From contig JAHRVQ010000052.1 of assembly GCA_019090615.1 (NCBI GenBank), forward strand, positions 65,938 to 97,937: DNA of 32,000 nucleotides, given 5' to 3'. This document shows positions 2,692-25,836 of this stretch, in pieces (position 1 is the stretch's first letter; each line of letters opens with the position of its first letter). The stretch is from Pseudomonadales bacterium. Its GTDB lineage: Bacteria > Pseudomonadota > Gammaproteobacteria > Pseudomonadales > Azotimanducaceae. The translations under genes were made by a program, and so were the position numbers. The notes beneath the pieces are model-generated. The model did not search any database, had not been told where the DNA came from, and saw nothing but the letters and a program-made list of their open reading frames with translations.

Positions 2692-4131
2692 CTATTGACT
2701 CCAGCGTTTAGCTTCCGCCAGCGACTTGGTATAGGCCGGCAGGCAATACCAGAACAGACCTGCCGCAACCGGATAAAAAAGAATGCAGGCGGTGGCGATG
2801 GAATAATGTAGCAAGTTATCGTCCTGGTAGAGAAAATCGGTAAATGCCGCCAGCACACTGCCACCTAGTGCCATACCAATCATACTGGTAGAAAATATAT
2901 ACACCGCCGTCACCTGGCCACGCATCTGATTAGGCGTGATTTCCACAATAGATACCGCCATTAAGCCAAGATACGAACCGGATAAAAGCACCGCTGGCCA
3001 TAATAACCATAAGGTGGTTTGCGCCTCACCTGACAAGGGCGCCAGGGTGGAAAACGGGATGGCAAGCACCGACGCAAAAAACATGGTGCGTACATTCGCA
3101 TCCTCGTAACCACGCTTACGCAGTAAACTCGCACACCAGGTGGCCAACATAATGCCAGCACTACCCGCCACCAGGATTATAATACCGAACGACGCCCCAG
3201 CTTCACTTTTTGACATGCCATAGTTACGGGTAAATAGTTCAGGATACCAGGCACCACTGCCATATTGCGCCATCGCCATCATCGATGAACCCAGTAACAA
3301 ACAGAGATAAGTGCGGCGCCTTTGCCAAATAAAATCAACCACTTCTTTAAAGGGGATTTCTGTGGGCACTTCACCATTTTTTGCGATCAGGCCTTTACGC
3401 GTGGGTTCCTGAATGGTCAGGAACAACAGACTGAGTAACATGCCCGGCAGGCCAACACTTATTATGGTTGCCTGCCACGGCTTAATCACACCGATATAAG
3501 CTAATTCGATCACCCCAAGGCTGGCGTAATAATCATATAAAAAACCACCCACCACCAGTGCAAGCCCGCCACCAATCTTGACCCCGAGCTTATAAAAAGA
3601 CATGGCAAAACCAACGTGTTGCGGCCTAAAACTATCCAGAATCAGCGAATAGGCAGGCGGTGATAAACCTGCTTCACCCGCACCCACACCCATCCTGGCG
3701 ACAAATAGCTGGGCAAAGTTTTTAGTAAAACCGCAGGATACGGTCATGATACTCCAGAAGAATACCGACCCAGCAACAATCATGCGGCGAGAATATTTAT
3801 CTGCCAGTCGGCCCAAAGGCAACCCGGCGACCGCATATAAAATCGCAAAGGCCGCACCCGCTAACAGGCTATATTCAAAATCTGTTATACCGAAGTCTGC
3901 CCGGATTGGGCCCACCAGCAGCGCCAGTATCTGCCGATCAATAAAGGATAAAATATAGGCAGAAAATAATAACCCAAGACAATAGCTGGCAGAGCCCAGG
4001 CCCGGATAATCATCTTCGGCCACCGCTGCTGTTGCGGTGGCACTTGTATCTGTGGCACTTGTATCGGTAGCGCTGGTGTCAGTTGCACTGGTTTGGGTAC
4101 TGGTTTCTAGTTCTGATTCGGATGCAGTCAT
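2692..4131 (-). CDS. MFS transporter with a repeat-containing N-terminal tail
   Basis: 479-aa ORF with about 12 hydrophobic segments. It carries the MFS loop 2-3 signature GLPLGRLADKYSRRMI. The N-terminus holds TDTSATDTSATDTSA. Confidence 0.9.
   Translation of the reverse strand: MTASESELETSTQTSATDTSATDTSATDTSATATAAVAEDDYPGLGSASYCLGLLFSAYILSFIDRQILALLVGPIRADFGITDFEYSLLAGAAFAILYAVAGLPLGRLADKYSRRMIVAGSVFFWSIMTVSCGFTKNFAQLFVARMGVGAGEAGLSPPAYSLILDSFRPQHVGFAMSFYKLGVKIGGGLALVVGGFLYDYYASLGVIELAYIGVIKPWQATIISVGLPGMLLSLLFLTIQEPTRKGLIAKNGEVPTEIPFKEVVDFIWQRRRTYLCLLLGSSMMAMAQYGSGAWYPELFTRNYGMSKSEAGASFGIIILVAGSAGIMLATWCASLLRKRGYEDANVRTMFFASVLAIPFSTLAPLSGEAQTTLWLLWPAVLLSGSYLGLMAVSIVEITPNQMRGQVTAVYIFSTSMIGMALGGSVLAAFTDFLYQDDNLLHYSIATACILFYPVAAGLFWYCLPAYTKSLAEAKRWSQ
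4039..4083 (-). repeat. 15-bp in-frame tandem repeat x3 encoding (TDTSA)3 in the MFS N-terminus
   Basis: The plus strand reads ggcacttgtatctgt ggcacttgtatcggt agcgctggtgtcagt. Confidence 0.7.
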
Positions 4132-4350
4132 AACGCAAAGGTATTATATATTGAACTATATTGTTACTACTTTTTTCATCATGTACAAGGCCGTCGCCTG
4201 TTAGCCCCCGTCAGGACATCGATAATCTACCAGCAATACGTCTATTTGGAGCCATTATTGCCGTTAGCCTTATGGGTAAATGCAGATTTTTGCGATAAAA
4301 ACTCGCAAACTAAAAAAGGATAAAAGGGAAAAAGCGAAAAGGGTAAAGCG

Positions 4351-7065
4351 TTAGAGTGCCCTGGCGACGCGAAAACCCACCCTGATGCTCGCTTCAACGG
4401 TATCGTCCCTATCGCGGTTCGCGGACCGCAAATTCGCAGGTCTGTTGAACCAGCCACCGCCGCGCAACACCTGCCGGGCGCAAGCGCCCTTATCCGTAGG
4501 CCAGGCTGATTCATCATCCGGCGCCCCCTTATAAGAACTATGCCAACAATCCGCCACCCACTCCCAAACGTTACCATGCATATCAAATAGACCAAAGTTG
4601 TTGGCTATAAAACTGCCAACGGGTGCTGTCTGGTTGTTAAATCCATCCTTTGGCCATCCATATCGTTCATCGCCATTGGCATGTTTACCACTGGGCGCAT
4701 CGCCCCAGCTATAACGGGTTTGGGTACCTGCTCTGGCCGCATATTCCCATTGCGCTTCGCGGGGCAGATAATAGGCTTCGCCCGTTTTAGTGGATAGCCA
4801 TTTAACATAGGCGGCGGCGTCCAACCCGCTAACATTAATCACCGGCCGCTTAGCACGCCCCCAACCCCTGTCAGCTGGCAGCTTTTTACCTTCTGCCAGG
4901 GCAAAGGCATCATATTCCTCAAAGGTCACCTCAAAGCGGCCCAGGGCAAAGGGTGCTTCTATCGTCACCTTATGTGCTGGCCCCTCATTTTCTTCACGGC
5001 CCGCCTCGTCTTTTTCTGAGCCCATTCTAAAAACTCCAGCGGGTATCACCACCATAGCAGGACAAAAACTACAGTCGGCAAAAGTATCACCGGCTGCATA
5101 ATCAGCTTGCGCGGGTTTTTTAGGGTTTATTACTGGTTGTTTTAAAGTACGAATTTGCGCTTTCAAGCTGGCTATGGTGCGGTTTTTTGAGTCAATAATG
5201 GCCTGTAACTTCTGGTCCGTGCTGGCATTACCGCCAACCTCGATCTGTAAGGTTTTAAGCTGTAAGTTCAAAGCAGCCACCTGCGTATTTAGCGCGGTAT
5301 TAACCGCCCCAATTTGCTGTTGCGAAAGTTCCGCCGCAACGGCCTCCTGTTCCTGTTGGTCAAGGATTTTTGTTAATTGCTGGCTGGTGATATCGGATCG
5401 TCTTTTTTGTGCTTCATTAGCTATTTGTTCCGCTCGTCTGGCGACTGTTTCGGCGGATTTTGCCTGCCAGGCATAAAACCCTGCGCCACCAACTACCAGT
5501 AAAGCAAGACTTAAAAGCACCAAAACCGCCTTCACTGTTTTAAGCGACTGGGCCTGGCGCTGGCTTTGCTGTCGATCTTTTTCAACCTGCGCATAGTGGC
5601 TGGCGCTTTGTTGCAACAGATTGTCAACCGCCGAATAATGCTCACCCGCCTCGGCTGGCCAATGCCCTGGAGTGAGAAAAAGATTGGCCCAGGGCTTATT
5701 TTGCGTTGGCCACCATAATTGTCCGGCGCGGGTAACCGTCGATGACAAAAAACAGCTATTATCTGCCGCATAGGCCGTTGCACCACGCACCAGATCGTTA
5801 TAAAAACGCCGATCCATTTGCTCCTGGGCCAGCCAACCGGTTTTAACCTCGGCCAGGCGGTGCCAATTGCGTATCAGCGCTTCATGGCTAATATCAATAA
5901 GGGTATCAGGTTGCAATGGGCTACCATAAGGTGGCATCAAAAAATTCACCCCTGGCAGGCTAAATATCTGCACCACATAGGACAACAGCGCAATGTCAAC
6001 CTCTGCCATTGCCGCGATTTTGCTTAGACTTTGCGGCGCGCGTGTTTGTCGGCCATCCTGATCAACCGCCGTAATACAGCGGAAAATTCGCGCAGCTATC
6101 GGCTGCAGGTCCTGCTCAGCTGCCGCGTCAACCGCAAGCCCGGTGTAGATTTCATCCGCATGTCTGGATAACGCTTGCGCCATACCACCAATGGCCTGGT
6201 AGTCATCGATATCCAGGTAATCAGGCTGTTGGCCCACTTCCCAGGTCCGCATCAGGGCATGCTGCATTACCGGCAAATGATCAGGGTCATCCCCCACCTC
6301 GGCAATAATCTGCTGCACCAGCGTTGGTGACATTTCACGCCCGGCGCGTAACGCCGGTTGTTCAATAGCAATACGGCGTTGCTGACGATTCATCCTTGGT
6401 ACCAGAAACTGGCCGGCATTAATTACCTCGGGCAAACCGGAAAAACGGGTACAGTCGCCCAAAAAGTCAAGCCGGGTCGTCAGCATAATATGTACCGAAC
6501 AGGTTTGCTGCAGATCAGCCTGCACCGCACGGATTAATAATTTAACGAACCGAGTTGCTTCTTCCCAGGCCGCTGGCCCGGCCTGGTTAGCGAAGCGAAA
6601 TACTTCTTCAAACTGATCCACAATCACCAGAAATTTTGTTGCCTGGGCATTTTCTTCGATCACCTCTGCCAGGCCATTACTGCTACTTAATAACAACGCC
6701 CTGGTGCGCATAAATTCCAGCTTGCTCAGATCAAAACTCGCATTGTCGGTTGCCGGTCCACGCTGAGTACGGTTATCGATCTCCAGCAGGGCCTGGGTTA
6801 ATACATCCATTGGCCTGGCCCCCGGGCGCATCACCAGCCATTGCCAACCACCGTTGCCCTCCAAACGAGGCAATAGACCTGCCCGCACCAACGACGATTT
6901 ACCACAGCCAGACGCGCCCACCACGGTAACAAAACGAGTATTATCGAGCTTGCTGGTCAGGGTTTGTATCTGTTCCTCACGACCAAAAAAATTCGCCCTG
7001 TCCTGGTATTCAAAGGGCCGCAAACCCGGATAAGGATTACCCAACACAACATTCGTACTAGGCAT
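4351..7065 (-). CDS. STAND (nSTAND-type) P-loop NTPase, single TM helix, coiled coil, C-terminal FGE/SUMF1-like domain
   Basis: 904 aa. The N-terminus NPYPGLRPFEYQDRANFFGREEQ, Walker A VVGASGCGKSSLVRAGLLPRL and Walker B FLVIVDQFEEVF are typical of novel-STAND NTPases. One hydrophobic helix (VKAVLVLLSLALLVVGGAGFYAW) lies near residue 520. A Q/A/L-rich heptad region follows. The C-terminus has GNVWEWVADCWH, VLRGGGW and GFRVARAL. The start overlaps the upstream TIR gene stop by 8 nt. Confidence 0.85.
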   Translation of the reverse strand: MPSTNVVLGNPYPGLRPFEYQDRANFFGREEQIQTLTSKLDNTRFVTVVGASGCGKSSLVRAGLLPRLEGNGGWQWLVMRPGARPMDVLTQALLEIDNRTQRGPATDNASFDLSKLEFMRTRALLLSSSNGLAEVIEENAQATKFLVIVDQFEEVFRFANQAGPAAWEEATRFVKLLIRAVQADLQQTCSVHIMLTTRLDFLGDCTRFSGLPEVINAGQFLVPRMNRQQRRIAIEQPALRAGREMSPTLVQQIIAEVGDDPDHLPVMQHALMRTWEVGQQPDYLDIDDYQAIGGMAQALSRHADEIYTGLAVDAAAEQDLQPIAARIFRCITAVDQDGRQTRAPQSLSKIAAMAEVDIALLSYVVQIFSLPGVNFLMPPYGSPLQPDTLIDISHEALIRNWHRLAEVKTGWLAQEQMDRRFYNDLVRGATAYAADNSCFLSSTVTRAGQLWWPTQNKPWANLFLTPGHWPAEAGEHYSAVDNLLQQSASHYAQVEKDRQQSQRQAQSLKTVKAVLVLLSLALLVVGGAGFYAWQAKSAETVARRAEQIANEAQKRRSDITSQQLTKILDQQEQEAVAAELSQQQIGAVNTALNTQVAALNLQLKTLQIEVGGNASTDQKLQAIIDSKNRTIASLKAQIRTLKQPVINPKKPAQADYAAGDTFADCSFCPAMVVIPAGVFRMGSEKDEAGREENEGPAHKVTIEAPFALGRFEVTFEEYDAFALAEGKKLPADRGWGRAKRPVINVSGLDAAAYVKWLSTKTGEAYYLPREAQWEYAARAGTQTRYSWGDAPSGKHANGDERYGWPKDGFNNQTAPVGSFIANNFGLFDMHGNVWEWVADCWHSSYKGAPDDESAWPTDKGACARQVLRGGGWFNRPANLRSANRDRDDTVEASIRVGFRVARAL
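4450..4648. repeat. Near-identical 199-nt block shared with 10341..10539 (inside FGE-like domain coding sequence)
   Basis: By-eye alignment shows only a handful of mismatches over 199 nt. This is far above the identity of the rest of the two genes. Confidence 0.8.
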
Positions 7066-8698
7066 CGGTATCCTCGAGGCCGTTTTTACTTGAAGGGCTA
7101 TGGTTGCCAGGGCGCTGACTTAAAGCGCTATGCGCTCGTTGAATATCTGCTGTGCGCGTCTTCAGCCTATCGATAAAAGGCTGAAACATCGTACTATCCG
7201 CCCCTTTGATGACATTAATCACGGTGTCAACCGCCGGACTGCGGAACAGGCTTTTTTGCCCGCTTTCAGGCGCTGCCAGGATCACAGCCGTTACCCCAGT
7301 GCGCGTGCCTGGGTAATTATCAGCAGCCAGATCGCGGCCCTGTAATATCATTAGTTGCTGCTGAAAATCTGCATAGGTCTGACTCCCATAATGCAGCAGC
7401 ACAGCGTCACAATGTTGTAATTGCGCCGCCTGATGTTGTGCCCGGGTATCAGCATCAGATTCAAAATCTGGCAATACCACCTCAACACCCGCATCAACCA
7501 ATATATTGTAGACAGGGGTCATTAACGCCAGGTCCTGCTGCGCATAATATAAATAGATCAATGGAATTTTTTGCTGCGCTGGTTCTACGGGCGCGGGTAC
7601 TATGGAGGTTGTTTTGATTGCTAACAGGGTATCAAGCACAGTGGTTTTCAGGTCTTCAAAGGGTTCACCATTAAGCACTTCATCATCAGGCTGTATATCC
7701 TGGTAGGTCTGCAGTTTTTCGATAAAGGATTTATGCCCAGGTTCTTTTACCTGCAGGTTTTTTTCCAGCCAGACGATACGTTTAATATCTGCTCCCTGTT
7801 GCCGGTGGCTAGCCACTAGATCAAACTGCTGGTGCACAATTGGCTGCGCCGCACCATCAGGGGTATTACCATCGGGAGTATAACCACCAGTTTGACCAAT
7901 CAGATGAATCGCCATGCTAGCCGACTGTATTTCTTCTTTGATACCCTGCAAAACCTGGTCTTGCTGCAGCGGCAGTAGCGGCTGTTGCGGCACCACTCGA
8001 TAACCATGGCTTTCGAGCTCATCACGAAGCTCCTGCCACCTGTCCAGCAGGTCATGGCTGGTGACTGCCAGATAGAGCGTTATTATATCGTTATCTATAG
8101 CCGGCACTGTATCTGGTACTGCAACCAGTGCATTTTCCGCTGTTATCGTAGATTTGATCGCTGCTAGCTGGTTATTAATCGACTTACCGAGTTGACGAAT
8201 GCCCTTCCAGTAGTCGCGGTGCAGATGTTCGCCAAAACCATCGAAGAACGGTATTTCATCGTTCTCCTGCTGATCGATATGAAAAAATTTGAAGCCGGTT
8301 TTATCACGGATCAAATCCGGCTGCAGCGCCAGATCCAGGTCCCTGATGAGTATTTTTTGAATGGCACCAGACTCGCCATCATGGCTGCTAACAAAGGCTT
8401 CAAACTCCTTCAAACAATAAGGACTATCAACCCAACAGGGCGATACTAAGGCTAAAAATACCGGTGCATCACGCACCGCATCCAGGATAACCTCATCAAA
8501 AAAAGTCACCGGGTCTATATCCCGCTTATCCCGCCATAACTCAAATGCCAGCGCCTGTTTGGTCAGCTCAATGCTCAGCGCACGATCAAAAAAATCCACC
8601 CAGCCAACAAAATTTTCACCCATGGGTGATTGATTATCGTCATGGGCATAACTTAAGAAAATCGTGTGCATAGCGTAGGCAGCGCTCCCCGATAGCAT
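7058..8698 (-). CDS. TIR-domain protein followed by two further TIR-like/Rossmann-like modules
   Basis: 546 aa. The N-terminus MHTIFLSYAHDDN...VFLALVSPCWVDSPYCLKEFEAF matches the TIR strand A, strand D and helix motifs, with a conserved Glu. Two later segments repeat the strand-helix pattern: ITLYLAVTSHDL...ASMAIHLIG and IPLIYLYYAQQDL...CDAVLLHYG. The true start may be the Met at 8671. Confidence 0.8.
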   Translation of the reverse strand: MLSGSAAYAMHTIFLSYAHDDNQSPMGENFVGWVDFFDRALSIELTKQALAFELWRDKRDIDPVTFFDEVILDAVRDAPVFLALVSPCWVDSPYCLKEFEAFVSSHDGESGAIQKILIRDLDLALQPDLIRDKTGFKFFHIDQQENDEIPFFDGFGEHLHRDYWKGIRQLGKSINNQLAAIKSTITAENALVAVPDTVPAIDNDIITLYLAVTSHDLLDRWQELRDELESHGYRVVPQQPLLPLQQDQVLQGIKEEIQSASMAIHLIGQTGGYTPDGNTPDGAAQPIVHQQFDLVASHRQQGADIKRIVWLEKNLQVKEPGHKSFIEKLQTYQDIQPDDEVLNGEPFEDLKTTVLDTLLAIKTTSIVPAPVEPAQQKIPLIYLYYAQQDLALMTPVYNILVDAGVEVVLPDFESDADTRAQHQAAQLQHCDAVLLHYGSQTYADFQQQLMILQGRDLAADNYPGTRTGVTAVILAAPESGQKSLFRSPAVDTVINVIKGADSTMFQPFIDRLKTRTADIQRAHSALSQRPGNHSPSSKNGLEDTDA

Positions 8699-8883
8699 AG
8701 TAGTTTTTATTCAAATGCTACTATATCAATAAATTACACCACTTTTACAGGATTGTGACTGGCTATTTTTCTGGGTGTTTTTAACCGGCGCAAGCCTCGC
8801 GTTATTAACGCCGTCGTCTACCCGCACCCTGGTGTATTCTTATTATCGATTCATCGCTGATCAAAACATGAACACGGCAAATA

Positions 8884-8897
8884 TTTTTTGGGGGGGG
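8884..8897. repeat. T6G8 homopolymer tract in the 279-nt spacer upstream of the TIR/STAND gene pair
   Basis: Direct reading atattttttggggggggtataac: G8 at 8890-8897 preceded by T6. Confidence 0.9.
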
Positions 8898-8977
8898 TAT
8901 AACAGATTCCCAGCTACTTTATTTTTGCGCTAATAATTTACTGCCTGTGCGTATGTAAAAGCACAAAGGGTAAAGCG

Positions 8978-10078
8978 TTAGAGTGCCCTGGCGACGCGAA
9001 AACCCACATCGAAGAACGAATCATCGGTAAGGAACCTAAGGCGGTTCGCGGACCGCAAATTCGCTGGTATGTCGTTCCAGCCACCGCCGCGCAACACCTG
9101 CCGGGCGCACTGCGCCCCATCAGCATCCAGCCAGGATGAGCCATCAACAGGCGCCCCAACATAACTATCATGCCAGCAGTCTGCGGTCCATTCCACGACA
9201 TTACCCGACATATCAGACAGCCCCAACAAATTACGTTGAAATGATCCACCTGACGCAGTATATGGATAACCATCCTCACAATCTGCAAATTCCTCAACGC
9301 CCAACTTTTTCGCCAGGGTTTCGTCAGCACCATTGGCATAAATACATTGTTGGTCATGGCCGGCGTCCTGACCCCAGTAATATGCCTCTATGCTGCCCGC
9401 GCGAGCCGCATATTCCCATTGCGCCTCTGACGGCAAATAATAATCAAACCCTGTCACCAGCGATAACCAGCGCGTATAGGCATTGGCATCACGCCAACTA
9501 ATACAGGTCACTGGATGAAGCCTGGTTTGTGGAAAACCCGGGTTACGCCAGTTACGATCCTTGCGCTGCTCGTAACCCTCCGCATCTGCATTAAATGCAT
9601 AGCAGCCGTTGGTCTCAGAATCAGCCTTATAACCGCTATCTTCCACAAAATCTTCAAATTGACCCAGGCTAACTTCGCACCGGCTGAGTGCAAAGGGTTG
9701 TTTAATGGTCACGCCATGTAATCTCTCATCAGGGTCACGGTCAGCTTCATTTTCCTCTGAACCCATATAGAAACGCCCTGACGGAATAATCACCATTTCA
9801 GGGCCAGGGGTTGCTTCTAACTCGGATATTGCCCTGTCTGTACAGGGCTTAGCGGGCAAGCTACCGGCAGGCTTAAAATCCACCAGGCTAGCATCCCTTG
9901 TTAACGGCCGGTCTGCTGGCTTCTTCCCCTTAGTAGACTTTTCTGGCCCCATTGCGATCGCGTCAGTAGGATAAGTAACCGCTATTATCAGGGGCATAAA
10001 TAATAAGACGCATAACCGTATAGTCGGCAATAAATGACAATCTTGCATCACCTTTAGGGTATTCGTTGAATCCTTCAT
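8978..10078 (-). CDS. Secreted or membrane-anchored FGE/SUMF1-like domain protein
   Basis: The ORF track gives 8978..10114. I prefer the ATG at 10078 (MKDSTNTL...), which is preceded by GGAGCAAATA. A hydrophobic leader follows (LLPTIRLCVLLFMPLIIAVTYPTDAIA). The FGE-like motifs are RFYMGS, WEYAARAG, GNVVEWTADCWH, VLRGGGW and GFRVARAL. Confidence 0.85.
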   Translation of the reverse strand: MKDSTNTLKVMQDCHLLPTIRLCVLLFMPLIIAVTYPTDAIAMGPEKSTKGKKPADRPLTRDASLVDFKPAGSLPAKPCTDRAISELEATPGPEMVIIPSGRFYMGSEENEADRDPDERLHGVTIKQPFALSRCEVSLGQFEDFVEDSGYKADSETNGCYAFNADAEGYEQRKDRNWRNPGFPQTRLHPVTCISWRDANAYTRWLSLVTGFDYYLPSEAQWEYAARAGSIEAYYWGQDAGHDQQCIYANGADETLAKKLGVEEFADCEDGYPYTASGGSFQRNLLGLSDMSGNVVEWTADCWHDSYVGAPVDGSSWLDADGAQCARQVLRGGGWNDIPANLRSANRLRFLTDDSFFDVGFRVARAL

Positions 10079-10241
10079 TATTTGCTCCAAACTTTTATGC
10101 GTCATCTGCCTCACATGGGCAACCTGTCAACCGCATTTGAACAACTGATAAAATTTATTTACCTGCCCAGAAAACGTTTTATAACCTGAGAAAGCGGTAA
10201 AGGTATAAAAAGAAAAGGGAAAAAGAGAAAAGTACCAAGGG

Positions 10242-13200
10242 TTAACGTGCCCTGGCGACGCGAAAACCCACAAGGCTGAACGAAGCACCGGAATTGATCC
10301 AATAGCGGATCGCGGACCGCAAATACGCTGGTTTGTCGTTCCAGCCACCGCCGCGCAACACCTGCTGGGCGCAAGCGCCCTTATCCGTAGGCCAGGCTGA
10401 TTCATCATCCGGCGCCCCCTTATAAGAATTATGCCAACAATCCGGCACCCACTCCCGAACATTACCATGCATATCAAATAGACCAAAGTTGTTGGCTATA
10501 AAACTGCCTACGGGTGCTGTCTGGTTACTAAATCCATCCGCTGGCCAGCCAAAATATTCACTACCATTAGCATGTTTGCCACTGGGTGAATCGCCCCAGT
10601 TATAGCGGCTACTGGACCCTGCCCTGGCGGCATATTCCCATTCTGCCTCTGTGGGCAATCGATAACTGGCGCCGGTCTGTTCTGATAACCATTCAACGTA
10701 GGCCGTTGCATCATGCCAGCTAACATTAATCACCGGTCGTTGGGCACGGCCCCAGCCTTCGTCATCTGGCAATGGGCGCCGGGTACTACGGGCAAATAAA
10801 TCATACTCGGCAAAGGTCACTTCCATCATACCCAGCGCAAATTTTCGGCTAAGGGTCACCTTATGTTGCGGACTTTCATCCTCGCGACGGCCCTCTTCCC
10901 CTACCGGCGAGCCCATCATAAAACTACCTACCGGTATGTTAACCATTCTCGGCCCCTGACCACCAACCAATAACGAATCACTGAAGGTGTTTGAGGGCTT
11001 AATAGAAGCAAAATTATCTGCAGACTTAAACTCTGTCAGTTGACCTGGCGACAAGTGATGTGCCCTGTTATCTTGCAGAATAACATCAGGGTTGGTTTGT
11101 GTGTTTGTTATACCTTCAGCGTCCTGCCATAAAACCAGGTTAATTTCATCGCTGGCCAGGGCAGTATCTAATGCCGCCGGCAAAAAACGCGCATAACTTA
11201 AATTATTCAGCCGCCGACGCACATATTGCACCTGTTGCAGGCTAACATTTTTGCCATAGGATAAGGGCTGCGCTGCCGGTCCAGTTTGCCGCAGGGCAAC
11301 CCGGTTGACGTTAAAACCGTGGCTGTATAATCGTGCTGCCAGTGCTGTAGCCAGCTTATTGGTGGTGGATGCTTCGATATTCACCACTAGATTACGATGT
11401 TGATTACGCTGATAATCCATCAACCAGTCTTGCAGCATAAACCCAATGGCCTTGTTATTTGCGGCAATACCCAACCCCAATAGCAGCGCCAGAATAAATG
11501 CTCTGGCGCCGTACAACATGGCCGTAAAACGCTGCAGGCCCGGCAGGTTGCGCGCCAATGTTTTACCCAGCCTGATATCAATTTTTTCTCCCCGGCCTAA
11601 CATCAGGCGGGCAAACACAGCATCGGAATAAACACTGGCAGGGGGTTTTGCTTCAAATAACACCCGCAGCAGATCCCAGCCACCATCCGCCTGGCGCAGT
11701 CTACGGCTCAGGTTTTGCCACCACTCACCTGCACCAGGGGGCAGAGCGATAGGCAGCACAATTTCACCACGGGTACTGCTGACACCCTGGAATAAACCCA
11801 GATAGACCCCCTTAACCCGGTCAACCTGCGCCGGTATCAATTCACGGGTTAGATCATCACGCAGCCAGTCGGGCATATATCCATGTCGGCACCAGGGCAA
11901 TTGAGCAATACGCAACATACGCTGTTCGCGACTGGCAGCGTCAGTTGCCTGGGGAAACAAACTACGATCCAGCGCCCGGGTCAGGCTCCAGTGAATCTGC
12001 GGATAGGCCGCCATGGCCCCCAGCAAGAACATACCCCTGCCATCAAGATAACTTTTAATCGCTGCCAGCATTGCACCGCGCTCGGCCTTTACCGGCGGCA
12101 GTGGTTGCAACAGCAAATCCTCATCCCGCAATAGATCCGGCAAGGGTATATAACCGCTATGCGGCGGGTTACGCGGCATCCGCTGGTTGCTCGATAAAGC
12201 GCTGTCCTGGGGGCTAGTTCTATCCAGGGGACGAAAGGGGCGCGCTATGGTTTTGGCCATAGCAACCAGACCATCGCTATCCAGCGCAGCGAGGCGAAAC
12301 CCCGCGGCTACAATATTGTTTTGAGTATCGTCAGCCACCTGGCTAGTATTCAAAATACCCCGCTGATCCCATACCTGCAGCTGGTCCGCCCAGTGATTTA
12401 AACTGCCGTCCCAGATATTAAACAGGATAGCCGGATCACCCACCAGGATAAGCCGCGAACCCCGATGCTGGGCCGCAATATCGGCCAATGAACGTAATCG
12501 ATGTTGCCCAAAGGCTTCACGCGCAAAACCTGGATTGTCACGATAATCAAAGCGGTGCACCGTTAAGCCGGCCTGTTCTAATAACGCCAGCACACGATCT
12601 GCCAGGCCAGCAATATGATCCTCCCGATGTTTAAACTCAGCCAGCAGGATAATTTCCGGAATTTCCTGTCGATCAGCATACACTGGCTGGAACAAGCCGT
12701 TAGCACGGATGCTGCTGGCCACGGTTTGTGCTTCATCCAGCCGTTGGCCTGGATAAAATACCGGCGTATGTAATGCCTTTAATGCGCGCCGCACTTGCTG
12801 GCTGGCAAATAGATCATCCACTGGCGCCCGCACCCGCAACTGCTGCAGTGGATTGGCCGGGTTAGCAGGCCCTTTGCGAAAGGCAATCCAGCGTTGGTAA
12901 TAACGCAACCCAAGCCATATAAAAGCCAGTATCAGGGGCGCCAGCGGCAACAGCCAACGGGCCGCATCCAGACCGCTTTGGTAGCCTGGCATCAGCAGCG
13001 GCGGATCAGGTTTTTTACGCAGCGGCAAGGGCTCAGGCTGGATCTGCAACCAGGCCAGTTTTTCACCCTCGGCTATACCCTCAGCGGATAATGAACCAAC
13101 AGTATCAGATGGTTGCGTCTTGTTAGACAGATCAATCACCGCAGGCGGCGCAATCTTGATAGCCGCAAATGGCCATCGACCGTAGGTCCAGTTATAACTT

Positions 13201-13664
13201 ACGCCAACCACCAACAGGATAAGCAGCATCATACTTAACAGCCACGTTGTGGGTCTGATCAACCTGGGCGTAGGTTGGGTTGATGCCGCCGCCAGCGGCG
13301 CATCCAGTACTTTGGTATGCACAAGTTTTGACGCTGCCCATTGCCGGCCTGTTTCGCGGTTAAGGTCCCTTACTTCAAGCGCCGGGTCTGTTTGATCAAG
13401 CCAGAGCTTCATTACCTCGGCAAAACTGGCCTGGTCCAGGGCACTTTTACAGACTAACGGCCCAATATAAGCACCCAGTTGCTGAGGCCGGGTGGGTAGT
13501 TGGTGGTTCAACTGAAGCTGTTGCAGCAGATCGTTTATATTAATCCAGGTGCCTGGGTCATGGCATAAATCGGCCGCCCGCAGCAACCGCCATAGCCGTG
13601 GCAGTCCATCTTGTAATAATTCATCGACGCTCAGGGTCGATAATTTAGGCGCTGACATCTGCAC
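10242..13664 (-). CDS. Large three-TM protein with an uncharacterised ~430-aa cytoplasmic region and a C-terminal FGE/SUMF1-like domain
   Basis: 1140 aa, with a GTG start at 13664 or an ATG at 13658. Hydrophobic segments are LLSMMLLILLVVGVSY, LLPLAPLILAFIWLGLRYY and AFILALLLGLGIAA. The C-terminal 250 aa are paralogous to the 904-aa protein (GNVREWVPDCWH, VLRGGGW, GFRVARAR). The gene starts 10 nt after the MoxR-like gene. Confidence 0.8.
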   Translation of the reverse strand: MQMSAPKLSTLSVDELLQDGLPRLWRLLRAADLCHDPGTWININDLLQQLQLNHQLPTRPQQLGAYIGPLVCKSALDQASFAEVMKLWLDQTDPALEVRDLNRETGRQWAASKLVHTKVLDAPLAAASTQPTPRLIRPTTWLLSMMLLILLVVGVSYNWTYGRWPFAAIKIAPPAVIDLSNKTQPSDTVGSLSAEGIAEGEKLAWLQIQPEPLPLRKKPDPPLLMPGYQSGLDAARWLLPLAPLILAFIWLGLRYYQRWIAFRKGPANPANPLQQLRVRAPVDDLFASQQVRRALKALHTPVFYPGQRLDEAQTVASSIRANGLFQPVYADRQEIPEIILLAEFKHREDHIAGLADRVLALLEQAGLTVHRFDYRDNPGFAREAFGQHRLRSLADIAAQHRGSRLILVGDPAILFNIWDGSLNHWADQLQVWDQRGILNTSQVADDTQNNIVAAGFRLAALDSDGLVAMAKTIARPFRPLDRTSPQDSALSSNQRMPRNPPHSGYIPLPDLLRDEDLLLQPLPPVKAERGAMLAAIKSYLDGRGMFLLGAMAAYPQIHWSLTRALDRSLFPQATDAASREQRMLRIAQLPWCRHGYMPDWLRDDLTRELIPAQVDRVKGVYLGLFQGVSSTRGEIVLPIALPPGAGEWWQNLSRRLRQADGGWDLLRVLFEAKPPASVYSDAVFARLMLGRGEKIDIRLGKTLARNLPGLQRFTAMLYGARAFILALLLGLGIAANNKAIGFMLQDWLMDYQRNQHRNLVVNIEASTTNKLATALAARLYSHGFNVNRVALRQTGPAAQPLSYGKNVSLQQVQYVRRRLNNLSYARFLPAALDTALASDEINLVLWQDAEGITNTQTNPDVILQDNRAHHLSPGQLTEFKSADNFASIKPSNTFSDSLLVGGQGPRMVNIPVGSFMMGSPVGEEGRREDESPQHKVTLSRKFALGMMEVTFAEYDLFARSTRRPLPDDEGWGRAQRPVINVSWHDATAYVEWLSEQTGASYRLPTEAEWEYAARAGSSSRYNWGDSPSGKHANGSEYFGWPADGFSNQTAPVGSFIANNFGLFDMHGNVREWVPDCWHNSYKGAPDDESAWPTDKGACAQQVLRGGGWNDKPAYLRSAIRYWINSGASFSLVGFRVARAR
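10341..10539. repeat. Near-identical 199-nt block shared with 4450..4648
   Basis: See the partner feature. The 3' flanks of the genes also share aaaagggaaaaag[c/a]gaaaag. Confidence 0.8.
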
Positions 13665-13674: not shown

Positions 13675-14811
13675 CTAAGCTGGCTGTAACCATTTGGTTA
13701 GCAGCCCCGTGGCATCAGCTTGAATTTCAGGGTTTTTCAGCAGGGTCAGCTTAACGGCCGCCAACACCTGCTGGCGCGGCTGCTGGTTTAATAATTTATC
13801 CTGATCCAGATCAAATGGGCGGTTTATGCTGCCGGGTAAAATAAGATCAAGGAAGTTAATCATTTCTGCTAGCCCAGGGCGACGGCTGATATTCACCGCA
13901 TCACTGCGCAAATACCGAAACAGGGCGGTAGCATCCCTGGCCAATTTAGAATCCTCAACAAAACGACTGCCAAGGCGTTGTTGGCATATTTTTTCTATGG
14001 TGACGATGGATTCACCGTCATTGCCATCGTTAGTCTTTTTATTATCCTTTTTATTATTCATCGCCACTGAGCCTTTAATGGCGTCCTCATTAAACGGTGG
14101 AAAGGTAAGATGGTAATAAACACAACGGCGTAAAAAAGCGTCGGGCAGATTGCGCTCTGAGTTACTGGTAATAATCACGATGGGGCGATATTTAAATTCA
14201 TCTTCGGTCAGTTCGACGCGCACTTCATGGCCAACAGCGCGTTCAAATTCTGGAATGCGGAATGCCATATCTTCAAGCTCAGTGAGGATATCGTTGGGTA
14301 CATCGCGGGGTGCCTTGTCAACTTCGTCAATCAGCACCACAGAACGTGACTGTTGATGCGCCTGTACCACCAACGCATCGGCGGCCAAATTTAACGCTGA
14401 GCCGGTTAAAAAACTGACAGGTTTTGAATTTAACAGCGCCAACCCCAGTGCTTCAAATTTGATATATCGTTGCGGTGTGGCATCACCGTCGGTGGAGGCG
14501 GCATGGAAGCGCCCCACCGTATCAAAGCGATAAAACAGGTCGGTTGCGCGGGTATCAGATTTGACCGCAAACACAAAAGGGTCAAGCAGGCCTAACTCCC
14601 AGGCGACCGCATCTGCCAGGCGTGATTTACCCGAACCTGGCTCCCCCGTTAGCAGCAGCGGCATACCTAAGGTGATCGCCACGTTAACGGCGGCGCTAAG
14701 ATCGGCTGGGGCACGATAGTTGGCCCCTGCGCGCATACGTGCCGGGTTTATTTCAGGTATTGCTATATCTGAGCTAGCCTGGCTGCCCTTGCCGGAGAAA
14801 TAGGATTGCAT
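13675..14811 (-). CDS. MoxR/AAA_5-like AAA+ ATPase
   Basis: 378 aa. Walker A is LLLTGEPGSGKSRLADAVA and Walker B is VVLIDEVDKAPRDVPNDILTELED. A sensor-like stretch reads PIVIITSNSERNLPDAFLRRCVYYHL. An AAGGAA ribosome-binding site sits upstream, and there are 10-nt gaps to both neighbours. Confidence 0.85.
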   Translation of the reverse strand: MQSYFSGKGSQASSDIAIPEINPARMRAGANYRAPADLSAAVNVAITLGMPLLLTGEPGSGKSRLADAVAWELGLLDPFVFAVKSDTRATDLFYRFDTVGRFHAASTDGDATPQRYIKFEALGLALLNSKPVSFLTGSALNLAADALVVQAHQQSRSVVLIDEVDKAPRDVPNDILTELEDMAFRIPEFERAVGHEVRVELTEDEFKYRPIVIITSNSERNLPDAFLRRCVYYHLTFPPFNEDAIKGSVAMNNKKDNKKTNDGNDGESIVTIEKICQQRLGSRFVEDSKLARDATALFRYLRSDAVNISRRPGLAEMINFLDLILPGSINRPFDLDQDKLLNQQPRQQVLAAVKLTLLKNPEIQADATGLLTKWLQPA

Positions 14812-14821: not shown

Positions 14822-16231
14822 TTATAAAATTCTAGCCTGCTTTAATGAGTGCAACATATGCTTTTTAAGCGATTTATAACGCAGGCTGGTGCCCTCTGGC
14901 AGCGCATCATCAATACCAGTTTCTATTTTTTCGAGATCATAATATTTATCAAACTGCGCAATATCCTGATACCAGGATTCAAAATGCGCCAGCGATATTT
15001 CCCCCGGTGATGCTAGCCAGGTGGCATTGGTTGTACTTTCAATTTTCAGGTTTTGTCTATTTGCCCTGGCAGCGTCGGTTTCACGAATACAGCCAAAAAT
15101 AATCACCAGCCTTTTATGTCGTCGGTTGTTTTCTGATATGCCTTCAATTAACGCCTGGGCCGACTTAATATAACCATCAAGATAAGGTTCACTACGTTCA
15201 TCCAGTACCGTGTAGATAACTTTAATAGTCGGGTCAGAGCGCATCCACTCATCAAGGCCCGCAATTTTTTGTTCAATAGCCAAGTCTGCTTTAGTGTCCA
15301 AACGGCTGCCTTCTGGATTAGGTTGAGCACCATTATTGGCATTGGCATTGCTGCTGGTGCGAGATATCGCATTTTGCAGCATGGCGTGATAATGCGCTGG
15401 GCCACTGCCAGCCAGCACACTTAAAGCTTTTAGATTATGCCCAGGTTGCTGACTGGATATTGACACCGCACCCTGCCGCTGGCGTAAGATCACATGATCA
15501 GCAAAGGCAGCCAACGAATCTGCGGCCAGGTATTCAAGCAGAAAAATCAAACTGTCGTTACCCGTGCTATCACGGATGACTCGGTCGGTTTCGGCTAATA
15601 GTTTTTCACGATTAATCAACCGGATCAGCATTTGTTCTCGTGCCTCGAACTGGCTGCTGTCTGTTGTTGTAGGTTGCGATAGATTAGCCTGGTGTTGGTG
15701 TTGGTGCTGATGTGGATCGTGATCTTGATGCGGGTCGGTCTCAGCATTGGTCAAGCCTGCCGCAATTGGGCTATCGTCCGAGTGGCAATCAAGTTTATAT
15801 TGTAATTCTGCTACAAATTCACCGAATTTCAGCTCTTCATAGCGATAACAATTACGTTGACTAAAGGGCATTGGCAGTGCGTCATTTTCAAGCTCACCCA
15901 CCAGGATGGGGGAATATCGGCCTATATGTTCCGCCAATTCAATGTTTTGTTTAGCGGCACCGGCTTTATCCTGGCCCCAGACTAAATCTGCTTCCGACCT
16001 TACATGGTCGCTAGCAATCGCATTTTCTGACCATAATACCACCACCGCCCCAGCGAGCTTTACTCGTTTAGGAATCGCGTAGCGCCACCAGGCACCGCTG
16101 AATAGATCAATGTCCATAAATGTCTGAATACCAAAACCTTCTAGCTCCTGTCGAAACTTTAACGCGATCGCTTTATCCAGCCGAGAATAGCTGATAAACA
16201 CATAGGGTTTTGCTGGATCCAGGCGTTTCAT
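14822..16231 (-). CDS. TIR-domain protein with a His/Gln-rich linker and an uncharacterised C-terminal domain lacking a P-loop
   Basis: 469 aa. The N-terminus is PYVFISYSRLDKAIALKFRQELEGFGIQTFMD...AVVVLWSENAIASDHVRSEADL, which gives TIR strand motifs and a conserved Glu. The linker is DPHQDHDPHQHQHQHQ. No GxxxxGK[ST] motif occurs in the C-terminal 270 aa. Confidence 0.8.
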   Translation of the reverse strand: MKRLDPAKPYVFISYSRLDKAIALKFRQELEGFGIQTFMDIDLFSGAWWRYAIPKRVKLAGAVVVLWSENAIASDHVRSEADLVWGQDKAGAAKQNIELAEHIGRYSPILVGELENDALPMPFSQRNCYRYEELKFGEFVAELQYKLDCHSDDSPIAAGLTNAETDPHQDHDPHQHQHQHQANLSQPTTTDSSQFEAREQMLIRLINREKLLAETDRVIRDSTGNDSLIFLLEYLAADSLAAFADHVILRQRQGAVSISSQQPGHNLKALSVLAGSGPAHYHAMLQNAISRTSSNANANNGAQPNPEGSRLDTKADLAIEQKIAGLDEWMRSDPTIKVIYTVLDERSEPYLDGYIKSAQALIEGISENNRRHKRLVIIFGCIRETDAARANRQNLKIESTTNATWLASPGEISLAHFESWYQDIAQFDKYYDLEKIETGIDDALPEGTSLRYKSLKKHMLHSLKQARIL

Positions 16232-16270: not shown

Positions 16271-16342
16271 TTAAAAGCCGGGCTGTGGCTTTTCTTAAAA
16301 ACCGGGCTGTGGCTTTTGTTAAAAACCGGGCTGTGGGCACTT
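16271..16342. repeat. 24-bp tandem repeat x3 in the spacer between the 153-aa gene and the TIR gene
   Basis: ttaaaagccgggctgtggcttttc ttaaaaaccgggctgtggcttttg ttaaaaaccgggctgtgggcacttc. The core ccgggctgtgg starts at 16278, 16302 and 16326. Confidence 0.85.
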
Positions 16343-16433: not shown

Positions 16434-16895
16434 TTATGTCTTTTCACCAAAAGATTCAACTCCTGCGATCTCGGCTAACATGCCACAATAATTATTCAGG
16501 TCTATCTGCAGGTTTTTTAAATCCTCACGGAATGCTGTATTTGCCCCAGGGCCACCCAGCGTATTGGCCCGTGGATGCCAGTGAGCCGTAAAGGGCCTGA
16601 TGACCTCATTAAGGATAATAACAGCGATACGAGAAAAATTGACGCTTGACCTGCCGTGGGTTTTAAGGATTTCGCGGGTCAGCGGGAACAGCTGATAAAC
16701 GCTGTTTAACGCACTGACTTCATCGCCATCCAATGGGCTTAATGGCACGGTGGTAACCCGCGTTATTAATTCAATATACATACACCAGGCCGCATCTTTA
16801 TCGGCGTCGCCTGGCTGCCATTCCCAATTAGCAAAACCTGCCTTAATGGTGACTTTTTTTAGCTGCCAGGTTTCAAATAAATCCCTGATTTTCAT
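16434..16895 (-). CDS. Hypothetical 153-aa, probably helical cytoplasmic protein; first gene of the minus-strand cluster
   Basis: This is the only long ORF in the interval, and it lies on the same strand as the cluster. I cannot name a recognisable catalytic motif. The weak ribosome-binding site lowers confidence. Confidence 0.6.
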   Translation of the reverse strand: MKIRDLFETWQLKKVTIKAGFANWEWQPGDADKDAAWCMYIELITRVTTVPLSPLDGDEVSALNSVYQLFPLTREILKTHGRSSVNFSRIAVIILNEVIRPFTAHWHPRANTLGGPGANTAFREDLKNLQIDLNNYCGMLAEIAGVESFGEKT

Positions 16896-22385: not shown

Positions 22386-22850
22386 ATGGCATTAGCGGCG
22401 ACAGCCCTGGGAGGCGTTTTCGCGGAATATCATATTGCGTCGCAAACAGAAGCCTACAAATTTTACAACGCCGCATCAAACGCACCGGTCGCGATAGACG
22501 TTGCCGGCCCACAGAACTTCGTAGCAGATTTGCCAGCATTTTATTCCGACGGTTTTTTCGGCGCCAATAAAACTGCCGTCGAAGATATCGTATGGTTTTT
22601 AAGCGACGAAGATCTTGATGCAGGTAAAATTATATTCCATAAACCAGACGCATTCGCACCGCCTTCATTTAAACCGTTTGTGAGTATTGCTGACAATTCC
22701 AATACCTTTGCGATGTTCGATACAACCGTTTCAATTAGCTGGTTGCTGGTAGCAGATAACGCCGGCGCGGGCCTCCCAGGCCCCTCACCCCTGGCGCTTA
22801 TGGCCCTGGGCTTAATCGGTCTTGGTGCATCGCGGCGTAGATCAGCGTGA
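22386..22850 (+). CDS. Paralog 1 of a family with a PEP-CTERM-like C-terminal sorting tail; apparently 5'-truncated (no signal peptide)
   Basis: The tail is LPGPSPLALMALGLIGLGASRRRSA (proline motif, TM helix, Arg cluster). The family motif FAEYHIASQTEAYKFYN is present. The frame is open only back to 22314, and no signal peptide occurs in any upstream frame. Confidence 0.55.
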   Translation: MALAATALGGVFAEYHIASQTEAYKFYNAASNAPVAIDVAGPQNFVADLPAFYSDGFFGANKTAVEDIVWFLSDEDLDAGKIIFHKPDAFAPPSFKPFVSIADNSNTFAMFDTTVSISWLLVADNAGAGLPGPSPLALMALGLIGLGASRRRSA

Positions 22851-22920
22851 CATTAAGCGCACTTAAACCGGCGGCACACCAATGCCGCCAAGGTTTAACC
22901 TAACCAGCCAGCGCAATATG

Positions 22921-23180
22921 CCAGTTATCCGTTAGCCATAAACTTCAAAGGCACGCTGGAGAAATAATAACCCAGCCAATCAAAGCCCTTGCCGATTTTA
23001 TGGCCTATTCTGTCGGGAAATTTTACTGGTTGCTTTTAGAACAAAATTACATACCAACCTTGTTTTCATCCGACATTTACGCCAAGCCTCGTTCAGGCAC
23101 CGTTCATTTTGGCGATATCCGCGCAAAAACTGACGAATTTCCTTACAACCTCTAACCTGCAGCCTAGGTCACACAACAAC
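22921..23180. repeat. About 260-bp segmental repeat, copy 1 (partner 25837..26097; short third remnant near 27768..27800)
   Basis: By-eye alignment is collinear, without indels over most of the length, at roughly 85-90 percent identity. Confidence 0.8.
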
Positions 23181-23304
23181 AACTGATATATATATAAATT
23201 TAGTCTGCTATCTCAACAATTTATAAGCAAGAATAATAACTGGCGGTCACTCCTGGCCGGCATATCTATCACCTGCACCTCTGAAAAGACAGACGTTAGA
23301 GGTT

Positions 23305-23332
23305 AAAACTGTCGATATTATTTACAAAAACC
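23305..23332. repeat. 28-nt perfect direct repeat, copy 1 (aaaactgtcgatattatttacaaaaacc)
   Basis: The identical string occurs at 28052..28079. Weaker similarity continues for about 15 nt further. Confidence 0.85.
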
Positions 23333-23581
23333 CATGAATTCAGACTAGTAATGCACGGAACAACGTGGCCACTCGGGTCACCTACCCCAGCATGATGAAT
23401 CCGGCTGACCGTTAATAACTATAAATTCGAAAGCGATTCTTCGACAACCGTCTGGATTCAATTTTTGCTATGACCCAAATATTAAATTGCATGAGTGGGC
23501 ACTCAACACGATATTGAAACCGCTCCTGTGCCTAGCATTCAGCACGCCATGCGATCAGACGGGATTAATACAGGTAATTAT

Positions 23582-24292
23582 TTACTGACAGCTTTGCTTC
23601 GTATTCGTCCCAGCAAGCCAGGCGAACCCCAGCAGCAGTAGAAAAACACCACTGGGCGCAGGCACCTGAACTGGAGCGAATTCGACAGTCAACATCGGCC
23701 GATGATTAACAACAGAATAATTGTCTGTATAAAAGTAAGCCTGGTCTCCAGACAGGACTTCAATCAGCACGCCGAAGTTACTCGCGCCGTTGGACCACTG
23801 CTGCACGAGACTAGTAATATCGACAGCAAAACTCATGGCCGACGCATTTGGTAAAAATGTGCCTACTATCGGACCCCAGACGGCCTCTAACGCAGCAGAA
23901 CTTGTAGCCCCGGCGAAGGAATTGAACGTCACCGTCGCAGGATCCCAATCAATGATTGGACTATGTACATTCTGCACTGCGTTGGAACCCGAAAACGGGT
24001 GGGATGTAGTTGTCAACGTCAGTGTCGCATTTGTGATCACAGCACTATTGTCAACCTGGTTTACGCCGCTACCAAATACGTCATTAAAACGCACCAGGGA
24101 TGCAAAGGCCGAACCACCCGTATACATCTCGTCTTCAGAGTCAAAGTTTGTATTTGCGTTGCCTGTGGCATAGATATAGGTGGCATCGTTTCCTGCATAG
24201 CCATTTGCGCCTTCCTGAAAGGATATAACAACGGCGTTGGCGGCAGAAGAAAATAGCATCATTAGAAAAATTGCTTTGATATTATGATTCAT
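23582..24292 (-). CDS. Secreted protein with a divergent PEP-CTERM-like tail; the N-terminal domain resembles DNRLRE-type domains
   Basis: I prefer the ATG at 24292 (MNHNIKAIFLMMLFSSAANA signal peptide) over the GTG at 24316. SLVRFNDVFGSG...VITNATLTLTT follows the DNRLRE-like pattern. The C-terminus is VPAPSGVFLLLLGFAWLAG. Confidence 0.7.
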   Translation of the reverse strand: MNHNIKAIFLMMLFSSAANAVVISFQEGANGYAGNDATYIYATGNANTNFDSEDEMYTGGSAFASLVRFNDVFGSGVNQVDNSAVITNATLTLTTTSHPFSGSNAVQNVHSPIIDWDPATVTFNSFAGATSSAALEAVWGPIVGTFLPNASAMSFAVDITSLVQQWSNGASNFGVLIEVLSGDQAYFYTDNYSVVNHRPMLTVEFAPVQVPAPSGVFLLLLGFAWLAGTNTKQSCQ

Positions 24293-25175: not shown

Positions 25176-25187
25176 GGGTGTCTTAAT

Positions 25188-25727: not shown

Positions 25728-25786
25728 CCCAACGTTTCAACAACACCAACACCAACACCAACAACGTTTAATAACCGCCCAGCACT

Positions 25787-25816: not shown

Positions 25817-25836
25817 TTACGCTACCACCCGCTAAG

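Follow-up and report, generated by a model that had tools for sequence, protein, structure and literature searches.

Cysteine-less FGE-fold domains with retroelement-type variable regions: candidate sensors of two TIR/NTPase modules in a Pseudomonadales bacterium

What does a domain with the fold of a formylglycine-generating enzyme (FGE) do once its catalytic cysteines are gone? This question is raised by three minus-strand genes in a 32,000-nucleotide (nt) stretch of a Pseudomonadales metagenome-assembled genome (MAG; GenBank assembly GCA_019090615.1, contig JAHRVQ010000052.1, positions 65,938 to 97,937 of the forward strand), to which we refer as the window. The genes encode a 904-amino-acid (aa) NTPase (4351..7065), a short, domain-only protein (378-aa open reading frame [ORF], 8978..10114), and a long protein of 1140 aa (10242..13664), each of which ends in an FGE-homology domain. 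The original prediction held that all three domains lack the FGE cysteine pair, that they are not sulfatase-maturing, and that they probably bind a ligand. This view has withstood our analyses, although it overlooked why the three peptides differ exactly where the cysteines would stand, namely, that the segment is in all likelihood the variable region (VR) of a diversity-generating retroelement (DGR). In a DGR, an error-prone reverse transcriptase (RT) copies a template repeat, adenines are randomized, and the resulting cDNA replaces the VR of a target gene. We consider it likely that the three domains are non-enzymatic C-type-lectin-fold (CLec, or 'FGS') ligand-binding domains with DGR-written VRs, and that they serve as the sensing termini of two neighbouring defence-type modules gated by NTPases.

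The three domains, all of which match the Pfam FGE-sulfatase family PF03781 (E 4e-56 to 6e-57), were compared with characterized FGEs, EgtB, and non-catalytic relatives. In the HMMER alignment with the Streptomyces coelicolor FGE (2q17/6muj), the enzyme's 'rggsylChdsyC' stands opposite 'rgggwnDkpayL' of the 1140-aa protein. The three window domains run in ungapped register across this segment, so that N/D/D stand where FGE has its first cysteine and L/L/L where it has its second (the aligned human chain, 2aft, is a C336S mutant, which places a serine at the first position). The peptides on which the original prediction was based are present in the translations, and no conserved cysteine pair emerged from any of these comparisons: in a 60-sequence alignment of relatives, cysteine occupies the first position in 0/60 and the second in 4/60 sequences, and the pair occurs in none. 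As read from these alignments, cysteine loss is a family trait and not a peculiarity of the window locus. The cysteines are also missing in PvdO, TvpA, PorK/GldK, and the type VI secretion immunity protein Tsi3, and the cysteine-less state is normal for a large non-FGE branch of PF03781, which includes the 'FGS' domains of conflict systems.

The domains nevertheless keep the FGE fold, whose scaffold motifs the original prediction had noted as retained. An AlphaFold2 model of the 904-aa protein's domain reached a mean predicted local distance difference test (pLDDT) score of 95.4 and superposed best on PvdO (5HHA; template modelling [TM] score 0.88, 42% identity). The true FGEs came next (TM 0.75-0.78), and TvpA, a variable protein of a DGR (2Y3C), could also be superposed (TM 0.77). 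The closest relative by sequence in the PDB is likewise PvdO (E 1e-47 to 7e-52, ∼42-45% identity), with the FGEs at about 1e-20 to 1e-25 and TvpA (2y3c) at 2e-13. EgtB structures were matched weakly, both by sequence (E ∼1e-4) and by structure (TM 0.55-0.67). The EgtB active site is partly supplied by a separate N-terminal DinB_2 domain, which Pfam did not find in any of the three proteins; we therefore rejected an EgtB-like reading, just as we rejected a true-FGE reading because both catalytic cysteines are missing. By the same token, an EgtB-like His triad, which the original prediction had named as a refuting observation, is ill-suited as a test for domains that lack DinB_2. Further, a Pfam search of all window ORFs of at least 120 aa found no Sulfatase domain (PF00884). 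The lack of the cysteine pair, of DinB_2, and of a sulfatase gene together support the view that these are not sulfatase-maturing proteins and are probably ligand-binding ones, and, judged from their sequences, the three domains should be unable to make formylglycine. Public records name such proteins 'formylglycine-generating enzyme family protein', an annotation trap that is hereby corrected.

In place of the cysteines, we found a hypervariable block at the very end of each gene. The three VR-like segments, all on the minus strand, lie at 4356..4482 in the NTPase gene (encoding CARQVLRGGGWFNRPANLRSANRDRDDTVEASIRVGFRVARA), at 8983..9109 in the gene of the short target, and at 10247..10373 in that of the long target, and each of these 127-nt blocks ends 5 nt before the stop codon, that is, at the C-terminal end of its ORF. 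Among the three genes, 100 columns of the block are identical and 27 are variable. The variable columns fall on codon positions 1 or 2 in 24/27 cases, and an A is kept in at least one copy in 22/27. Upstream of the block, DNA identity among the three genes is 56-73%, and only 56-58% between the short gene and the other two, so the perfect identity of the remaining columns, third codon positions included, is not ordinary conservation. The 27 hypervariable positions fall in about 20 codons of a region that makes up the last ∼42 codons, and they include the codon at the first-cysteine position of FGE, which reads AAC/GAC/GAC. Setting all variable columns to A yielded an AAC/AAT-rich inferred template, TGGAACAACAAACCAGCGAATTTGCGGTCCGCGAACCGCAATAGGAACAATACCGATGAAACGAACAACAAAGTGGG, with the translation W N N K P A N L R S A N R N R N N T D E T N N K V G F R V A R A, which has the look of a typical DGR template repeat.

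Two further features of the sequence around the VRs were observed. Just past the stop codon that ends each VR-bearing gene lies a pyrimidine-rich block, …CTTTT…TTTTTCCCTTTT… (4322-4350, 8957-8977, and 10213-10241, minus strand); it also follows the VRs in two other loci described below, L004 (9304-9343 and 13000-13039) and L005 (5320-5352 and 8163-8195), and is not present after the L005 template repeat. This block could be a target-site element for retrohoming. In addition, the NTPase and long-target genes are near-identical for ∼140-170 nt upstream of the VR (4483-4621 and 10374-10512, minus strand), within a 300-nt repeat, D2, of 88% overall identity. Beyond the part that is homologous to the L005 template, this similarity suggests a separate recombination or duplication between the two paralogues. 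Three mutually similar, out-of-frame minus-strand ORFs of 117-139 aa (4242-4595, 8938-9357, and 10127-10486), which overlap the 3' ends of the FGE-fold genes, were rejected as genes, being shadows of the repeated variable-region sequence.

Whether adenines underlie the variable columns could be examined independently in related loci that retain an intact DGR. In the homologue search with the 1140-aa protein, the sole full-length relative besides itself (the identical P0121, on a 159-kb MAG contig that carries MBV1878479.1) was P0122 (48% identity), which belongs to locus L005. Here, AAA_5, a 1140-aa FGS protein, bAvd, RVT_1, and a 336-aa FGS protein follow one another, so that a complete DGR lies between a long and a short target, with its template repeat overlapping the 3' end of the RT gene. 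Three more loci, L006, L007, and L008, were reached through relatives of the L005 RT (L007 and L008 are near-duplicates of each other), and all four loci are ordered AAA_5, long FGS, bAvd, RVT_1, short FGS. The L005 template differs from its own two VRs at 16-17 adenines and at 1 position elsewhere. When the window columns were set against this template, it carried an A at 23/27 variable columns versus 10/98 invariant columns (Fisher p = 1.4e-13); the four non-A exceptions are evidently places where the L005 and window templates differ in sequence. The templates of L006, L007, and L008 similarly carry an A at 21/27 variable columns versus 7-9/100 invariant ones. This coincidence of the variable columns with adenines of related templates is strong evidence, at the level of sequence, that a single DGR template belonging to the L005-L008 family gave rise to all three window segments.

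The kinship with these loci extends to the neighbouring genes. The long target has orthologues in L005 (48% identity), L008 (36%), and L006 (34%); the short target is 49-54% identical to the short targets of L005 and L008; and the window's MoxR-like AAA protein is 61% identical to that of L005 and 46-47% identical to its counterparts in L006/L008, all of which occupy the equivalent place in the gene order. A TIR gene stands upstream in L007/L008, at the position held by a 469-aa TIR protein in the window (24% identity, E 1e-10), whose C terminus also matches the incomplete ORF with which L005 begins (45% identity across 65 aa). Lastly, a 153-aa window protein has its counterpart in a 174-aa protein upstream of the L008 TIR gene (53% identity, E 6e-53).

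One part of the arrangement is absent from the window: no more than 127 nt separate the long target from the short one, at the place where L005-L008 hold Avd and RT. What appears to be left of the cassette is a remnant of the N terminus of bAvd, the DGR accessory protein, 'MKDSTNTLKVMQDCHLL', of ∼17 codons, fused in frame to the short target (10028..10078, minus strand). A tblastn search of the window with the L005 Avd recovered this remnant with 9/14 identities at the exact syntenic spot (E 0.021). The Avd N termini of L005, L006, and L008 share the motif ...[KP]A[VI]QDCHxLLxW[LV]IPQLDKFPR, and the start of the short target, MKDSTNTLKVMQDCHLL, follows it as far as QDCHLL before passing into the signal-peptide-like RLCVLLFMPLIIAVTYPTDAIA, followed by M. 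An in-frame deletion from avd codon ∼18 through the RT and the template to just before the signal peptide of the short target is thus a likely origin of this gene, and we treat the Avd scar as likely despite the short match because its position is the one predicted by synteny. It is conceivable that the deletion is an assembly variant, as L001, the one further copy of this locus, matches the window base for base; in Thiohalocapsa PB-PSB1, variants with an intact cassette did coexist.

None of the 3 × 100 non-variable positions has drifted, which leaves two readings: a very recent deletion, or continued rewriting of the VRs by a DGR at another place in the genome. Both the recent loss of machinery and rewriting in trans are documented in Thiohalocapsa PB-PSB1 (PMC10907252), where trans-acting templates serve remote or 'degenerate' loci. 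That an intact DGR elsewhere diversifies the window VRs, so that they are no frozen repertoire, agrees with the absence of any substitution at the 100 non-variable columns, which points to very recent homing from one template, and with the nSTAND1 target pairs of loci L002-L004, which likewise have no RT nearby. On the other hand, no RT traceable to the source MAG was found among the best 120 relatives of the L005 RT, and in the window the local cassette is clearly missing. We regard ongoing diversification in trans as a nearly balanced possibility that falls just short of even.

We next turn to the proteins that carry the variable domains. Seven co-directional and tightly packed minus-strand genes span 16895 down to 4351. 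The 904-aa protein comprises an nSTAND1 NTPase (residues 11-435; Pfam E 2.8e-90) with an intact Walker A motif (GASGCGKSS) and a Walker B-like VIVDQFEE, a hydrophobic helix (residues 513-531, nt 5473-5529), a coiled-coil-like stretch, and the CLec domain (residues 668-902, nt 4360-5064; FGE-sulfatase E 6.3e-57). Its gene start is overlapped by 8 nt by the stop of a TIR gene (7058..8698), which encodes a 546-aa protein with TIR_2 at residues 13-141 (E 4.8e-15) and a ∼400-aa C-terminal region that contains no confident Pfam domain and has a weak sub-threshold DUF4062 match; this protein is the predicted effector partner of the nSTAND1 protein. The short target, whose FGE-fold domain covers residues 104-376 (E 1.9e-56), likely starts at M13 (nt 10078), which gives 366 aa and matches the ENA gene call; its N terminus is a signal/anchor with the hydrophobic core LCVLLFMPLIIAV, then AIA followed by M. 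In the long target, the FGE-fold domain (residues 904-1138; E 3.8e-56) is preceded by an extension with no Pfam domain and three hydrophobic helices (∼135-153, 235-255, and 715-740). All of these hydrophobic segments were located with a hydrophobicity scan.

Upstream of the long target lie a 378-aa MoxR-like AAA+ ATPase (13675..14811; AAA_5 E 1.3e-10; Walker A GEPGSGKS, Walker B VVLIDEVD), the 469-aa TIR protein (14822..16231; TIR_2 residues 11-92, E 2.6e-13), which is the predicted effector of the MoxR-like module, and the 153-aa protein (16434..16895), a conserved first gene of this module with no Pfam family; all are encoded on the minus strand. A 24-nt tandem repeat (2.8 copies, 95% matches) occupies 16271-16336, between the last two genes. 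A PDB sequence search with the TIR domain, carried out as a check on the catalytic glutamate, returned no TIR structure among its matches; on inspection of the sequences, a glutamate that may be the catalytic one is present in the expected '...C/V-x-x-E' context in both TIR proteins.

The pairing of TIR with nSTAND1-FGS recurs in L002, L003, and L004, in otherwise unrelated neighbourhoods, where the partner TIR proteins are 42-45% (L002/L003) and 23% (L004) identical to the 546-aa protein. Moreover, the ∼1470-aa relatives P0004, P0005, and P0007 fuse TIR, nSTAND1, and FGS in one chain. Such recurring and fused pairs indicate that the TIR protein is functionally tied to the NTPase. L004, a metagenome contig, contains two tandem nSTAND1-FGS genes (6529-9303 and 10918-12999), of which the one is partnered by TIR and the other by SIR2-TIR. 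Over their C-terminal ends (∼130 nt), the two genes are identical apart from clustered differences, as in the window, with no RT nearby, and they are probably another pair of remote DGR targets.

On which side of the membrane do these sensors lie? The NTPase must be cytoplasmic, and the CLec domain beyond the helix is therefore predicted to be extracytoplasmic. Most of the best 120 relatives (P0001-P0120) have a hydrophobic helix at about residue 500, directly behind the nSTAND1 NTPase, whether their sensor is FGS, WD40, or TPR; this suggests that nSTAND1 proteins as a rule cross the membrane once and carry their sensors on the outside. In the long target, the three helices would put the C-terminal CLec domain outside if the N terminus is inside. 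Together with that of the short target, which has a signal/anchor, all three CLec domains are thus predicted to be outside the cytoplasm.

With the modules in view, two other accounts of the domains can be weighed. One is that they are enzymes with an alternative catalytic centre, such as PvdO-like periplasmic oxidoreductases or helpers acting on a siderophore or another small molecule. PvdO, a periplasmic protein, is by far their closest solved relative (42-45% identity, TM 0.88) and is needed for pyoverdine maturation, for which a glutamate has been reported as essential, and the locus is flanked by a TonB-dependent receptor (450-2522) and an MFS transporter (2692-4131). However, a PvdO glutamate in 'WGEPP', which may or may not be the essential one, aligns with the first FGE cysteine and hence with the hypervariable N/D/D codon, and a catalytic residue would not sit at a position that is randomized. 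Further, no pvd biosynthesis genes are present in the window or the related loci, the flanking TonB/MFS transport genes are not conserved in the related loci examined (L002-L008), and in fusions the domains are joined to STAND NTPase and TIR, not to metabolic enzymes. We consider an alternative enzyme to be very unlikely.

The other account would dispense with the retroelement and explain the pattern by ordinary gene conversion among the three paralogues and subsequent positive selection on binding residues. The window does lack an RT and a template, and the D2 stretch upstream of the VR, which lies outside the L005-template homology, indicates that some recombination between paralogues did occur. 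Yet selection would not confine the differences to the adenine columns of three independent related DGR templates (p 1.4e-13), and it would not keep third codon and non-A positions identical in genes that are 56-58% identical upstream; moreover, the syntenic place holds an Avd remnant. It is thus scarcely credible that the pattern arose in this way, even less so than that the domains are enzymes.

The reading of the domains as DGR-diversified sensors leads to a mechanism, which builds on features that were analysed directly, namely the fold, the cysteine loss, the VR signature, the synteny, the missing cassette, and the hydrophobic helices. The FGE loop that carries the two copper-binding cysteines would here be part of a hypervariable binding surface. 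In module A, the TIR protein would act with the nSTAND1 NTPase, which one membrane helix and a coiled coil would join to the CLec domain; module B would consist of the 153-aa protein, its TIR protein, the MoxR-like AAA+ ATPase, the long three-helix CLec protein, and the short secreted CLec-only protein. Located on the periplasmic side, the CLec domains would recognize a ligand of foreign or surface origin, and binding would be relayed across the membrane to the NTPase (nSTAND1, or the MoxR-like AAA protein for the long target). The NTPase would then license the TIR effector to consume NAD+ or to signal through nucleotides, as a consequence of which the affected cell would arrest growth or die.

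Several points weigh against this reading. No RT, intact Avd, or fourth repeat copy was found in the 32-kilobase (kb) window by tblastn, Pfam, or repeat finding, and repeat finding together with a position-specific scan for the template repeat returned the three VRs only. Exact-pattern scans on the invariant VR positions gave 0 matches for the VRs or the template in genome and metagenome collections that do not include the source organism. Adenine-specific mutagenesis is accordingly visible through related loci and not within the source genome, and the base-for-base identity of L001 adds no variation to it. A conserved hairpin or cruciform downstream of the VRs was not found, as the sequences there fold no better than shuffles. 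As for the function, we infer the ligand, the signalling, the TIR chemistry, and the defence role from protein families and comparative-genomics papers, and the topology from a hydrophobicity scan; PADLOC returned weak partial matches only (ThsB-like TIR and IetA P-loop), and the locus is not a catalogued defence system. Moreover, Kaur et al. describe FGS as an intracellular sensor (PMC8195603), whereas the helices in the window proteins point to the opposite side of the membrane.

A more far-reaching view, which we offer tentatively and hold to be rather doubtful, is that the locus is a 'snapshot' of a hypermutating receptor set. According to it, a deletion removed Avd, RT, and template, and the start of avd was co-opted for a secreted short receptor. 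The three receptors that were kept, all facing the periplasm and all derived from a single template, would be coupled to nSTAND1/TIR in the first case, coupled to MoxR-like/TIR in the second, and soluble in the third; one template family would thus supply two immune modules of different mechanism, with transmembrane sensing in the style of Toll-like receptors. If true, a lectin outside would be combined with an NTPase/TIR inside, unlike the intracellular sensors proposed so far. The helix common to nSTAND1 proteins likewise raises the question of whether this class surveys the periplasm rather than the cytoplasm. On the reading that we favour, the locus is a clean example, from a Pseudomonadales MAG, of DGR-written sensors in TIR/NTPase conflict systems whose retroelement has been excised, and its 27 defined hypervariable positions could be grafted or randomized to probe sensor ligands.

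The remainder of the window contains genes that are unrelated to the block: besides the TonB-dependent receptor and the MFS transporter, there are a PAS histidine kinase, a CoA-transferase, PEP-CTERM proteins, RadC, and a desaturase. The TonB-receptor and MFS genes are convergent, and the space between them holds a tandem array of an 18/19-nt unit, AGCCCTGAGCGAAATCAAA, in ∼7 copies (2532-2672). Three small PEP-CTERM proteins (22386-22850, 25188-25727, and 26846-27616) are encoded within repeated blocks of 54-265 nt (22386-27830; families D1, D4, D7, and D11). PEP-CTERM proteins are usually tied to exopolysaccharide and floc formation, and such neighbours would agree with reports that aggregate-forming bacteria are enriched in these DGR-sensor systems. 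Farther on, three 67-nt repeats at 72-nt spacing (28114-28324) lie upstream of a RadC-like JAB-domain gene (28854-29396, plus strand), after which come two tRNA genes (29500-29587 and 29686-29759, minus strand); the repeats, the RadC-like gene, and the tRNAs may mark the edge of a mobile or integrative element. An Rfam scan of the window found these two tRNAs only, far from the locus.

How does the locus compare with known systems? The true FGEs (human SUMF1, S. coelicolor, M. tuberculosis, and T. curvata) have the overall fold and the motifs WEYAARAG, GNVWEW, RGG, and GFR in common with the window domains. Unlike them, the window domains lack both Cu(I)-binding cysteines, their similarity to FGEs is far below that to PvdO, and no sulfatase gene accompanies them in the window. 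PvdO of Pseudomonas aeruginosa (5HHA), the closest solved structure, likewise has the FGE fold without catalytic cysteines; it acts, however, as a separate protein in the pyoverdine pathway and has no variable region, whereas the window domains are fused to NTPase or membrane modules and hypervariable in the equivalent loop. Treponema denticola TvpA (2Y3C) and Bordetella phage Mtd, the prototypes of DGR variable proteins, resemble the window domains in their CLec/FGE-type fold and in a C-terminal VR that forms the ligand-binding face (PMC7159879), but TvpA is a lipoprotein and Mtd a phage tail-fibre tip, and neither is coupled to NTPase/TIR modules.

The underlying biology, that is, DGR VRs in lectin-fold sensors of TIR/NTPase systems, has already been described (PMC8195603, PMC7159879, PMC10907252). 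In the account of Kaur et al. 2020/2021, FGS domains of MoxR-type and STAND-type conflict systems are interaction modules that have no enzymatic role and are diversified by DGRs; the authors also introduced the name nSTAND1 and reported TIR effectors as well as DGRs 'in a neighbouring locus or elsewhere' (PMC7159879, PMC8195603). The STAND NTPase-FGS conflict systems (Kaur, Iyer, Burroughs, Aravind, eLife 2021, PMC8195603; nSTAND1 = PF20703) likewise combine nSTAND1 with a C-terminal FGS and an adjacent or fused TIR. In contrast to these systems, the window protein has no N-terminal EAD/Death-like adaptor, its nSTAND1 match starting at residue 11, and its TIR is separate and translationally coupled. 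Doré et al. (PNAS 2024, PMC10907252) described loci of RT 'clade 5A' in which a MoxR-like ATPase and neighbouring TIR genes accompany two targets, a long one whose N-terminal part contains no known domain and a short CLec-only one, and 'clade 5D' loci with nSTAND1-CLec targets, in addition to degenerate loci lacking the machinery and trans-acting templates; they predicted both cytoplasmic and periplasmic CLec targets. The clade 5A loci of aggregate-forming Gammaproteobacteria (e.g., Thiohalocapsa PB-PSB1 DGR 8; PMC10907252) share with the window the MoxR-like AAA protein, the long and short targets, and the TIR, as well as the C-terminal VR and the variation at codon positions 1/2. Unlike them, the window is without Avd, RT, and template, and carries an Avd stub on the short target; 'degenerate' loci are known from the same study (PMC10907252), and this deletion and fusion are locus-specific. 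What is particular to the window is thus (i) the probable clean excision of the cassette, with an Avd stub fused to the short target, (ii) a consistent outside-facing topology that is predicted for all three sensors, and (iii) a single template family whose VRs serve not only the MoxR-like module, as in clade 5A, but also the adjacent nSTAND1/TIR module.

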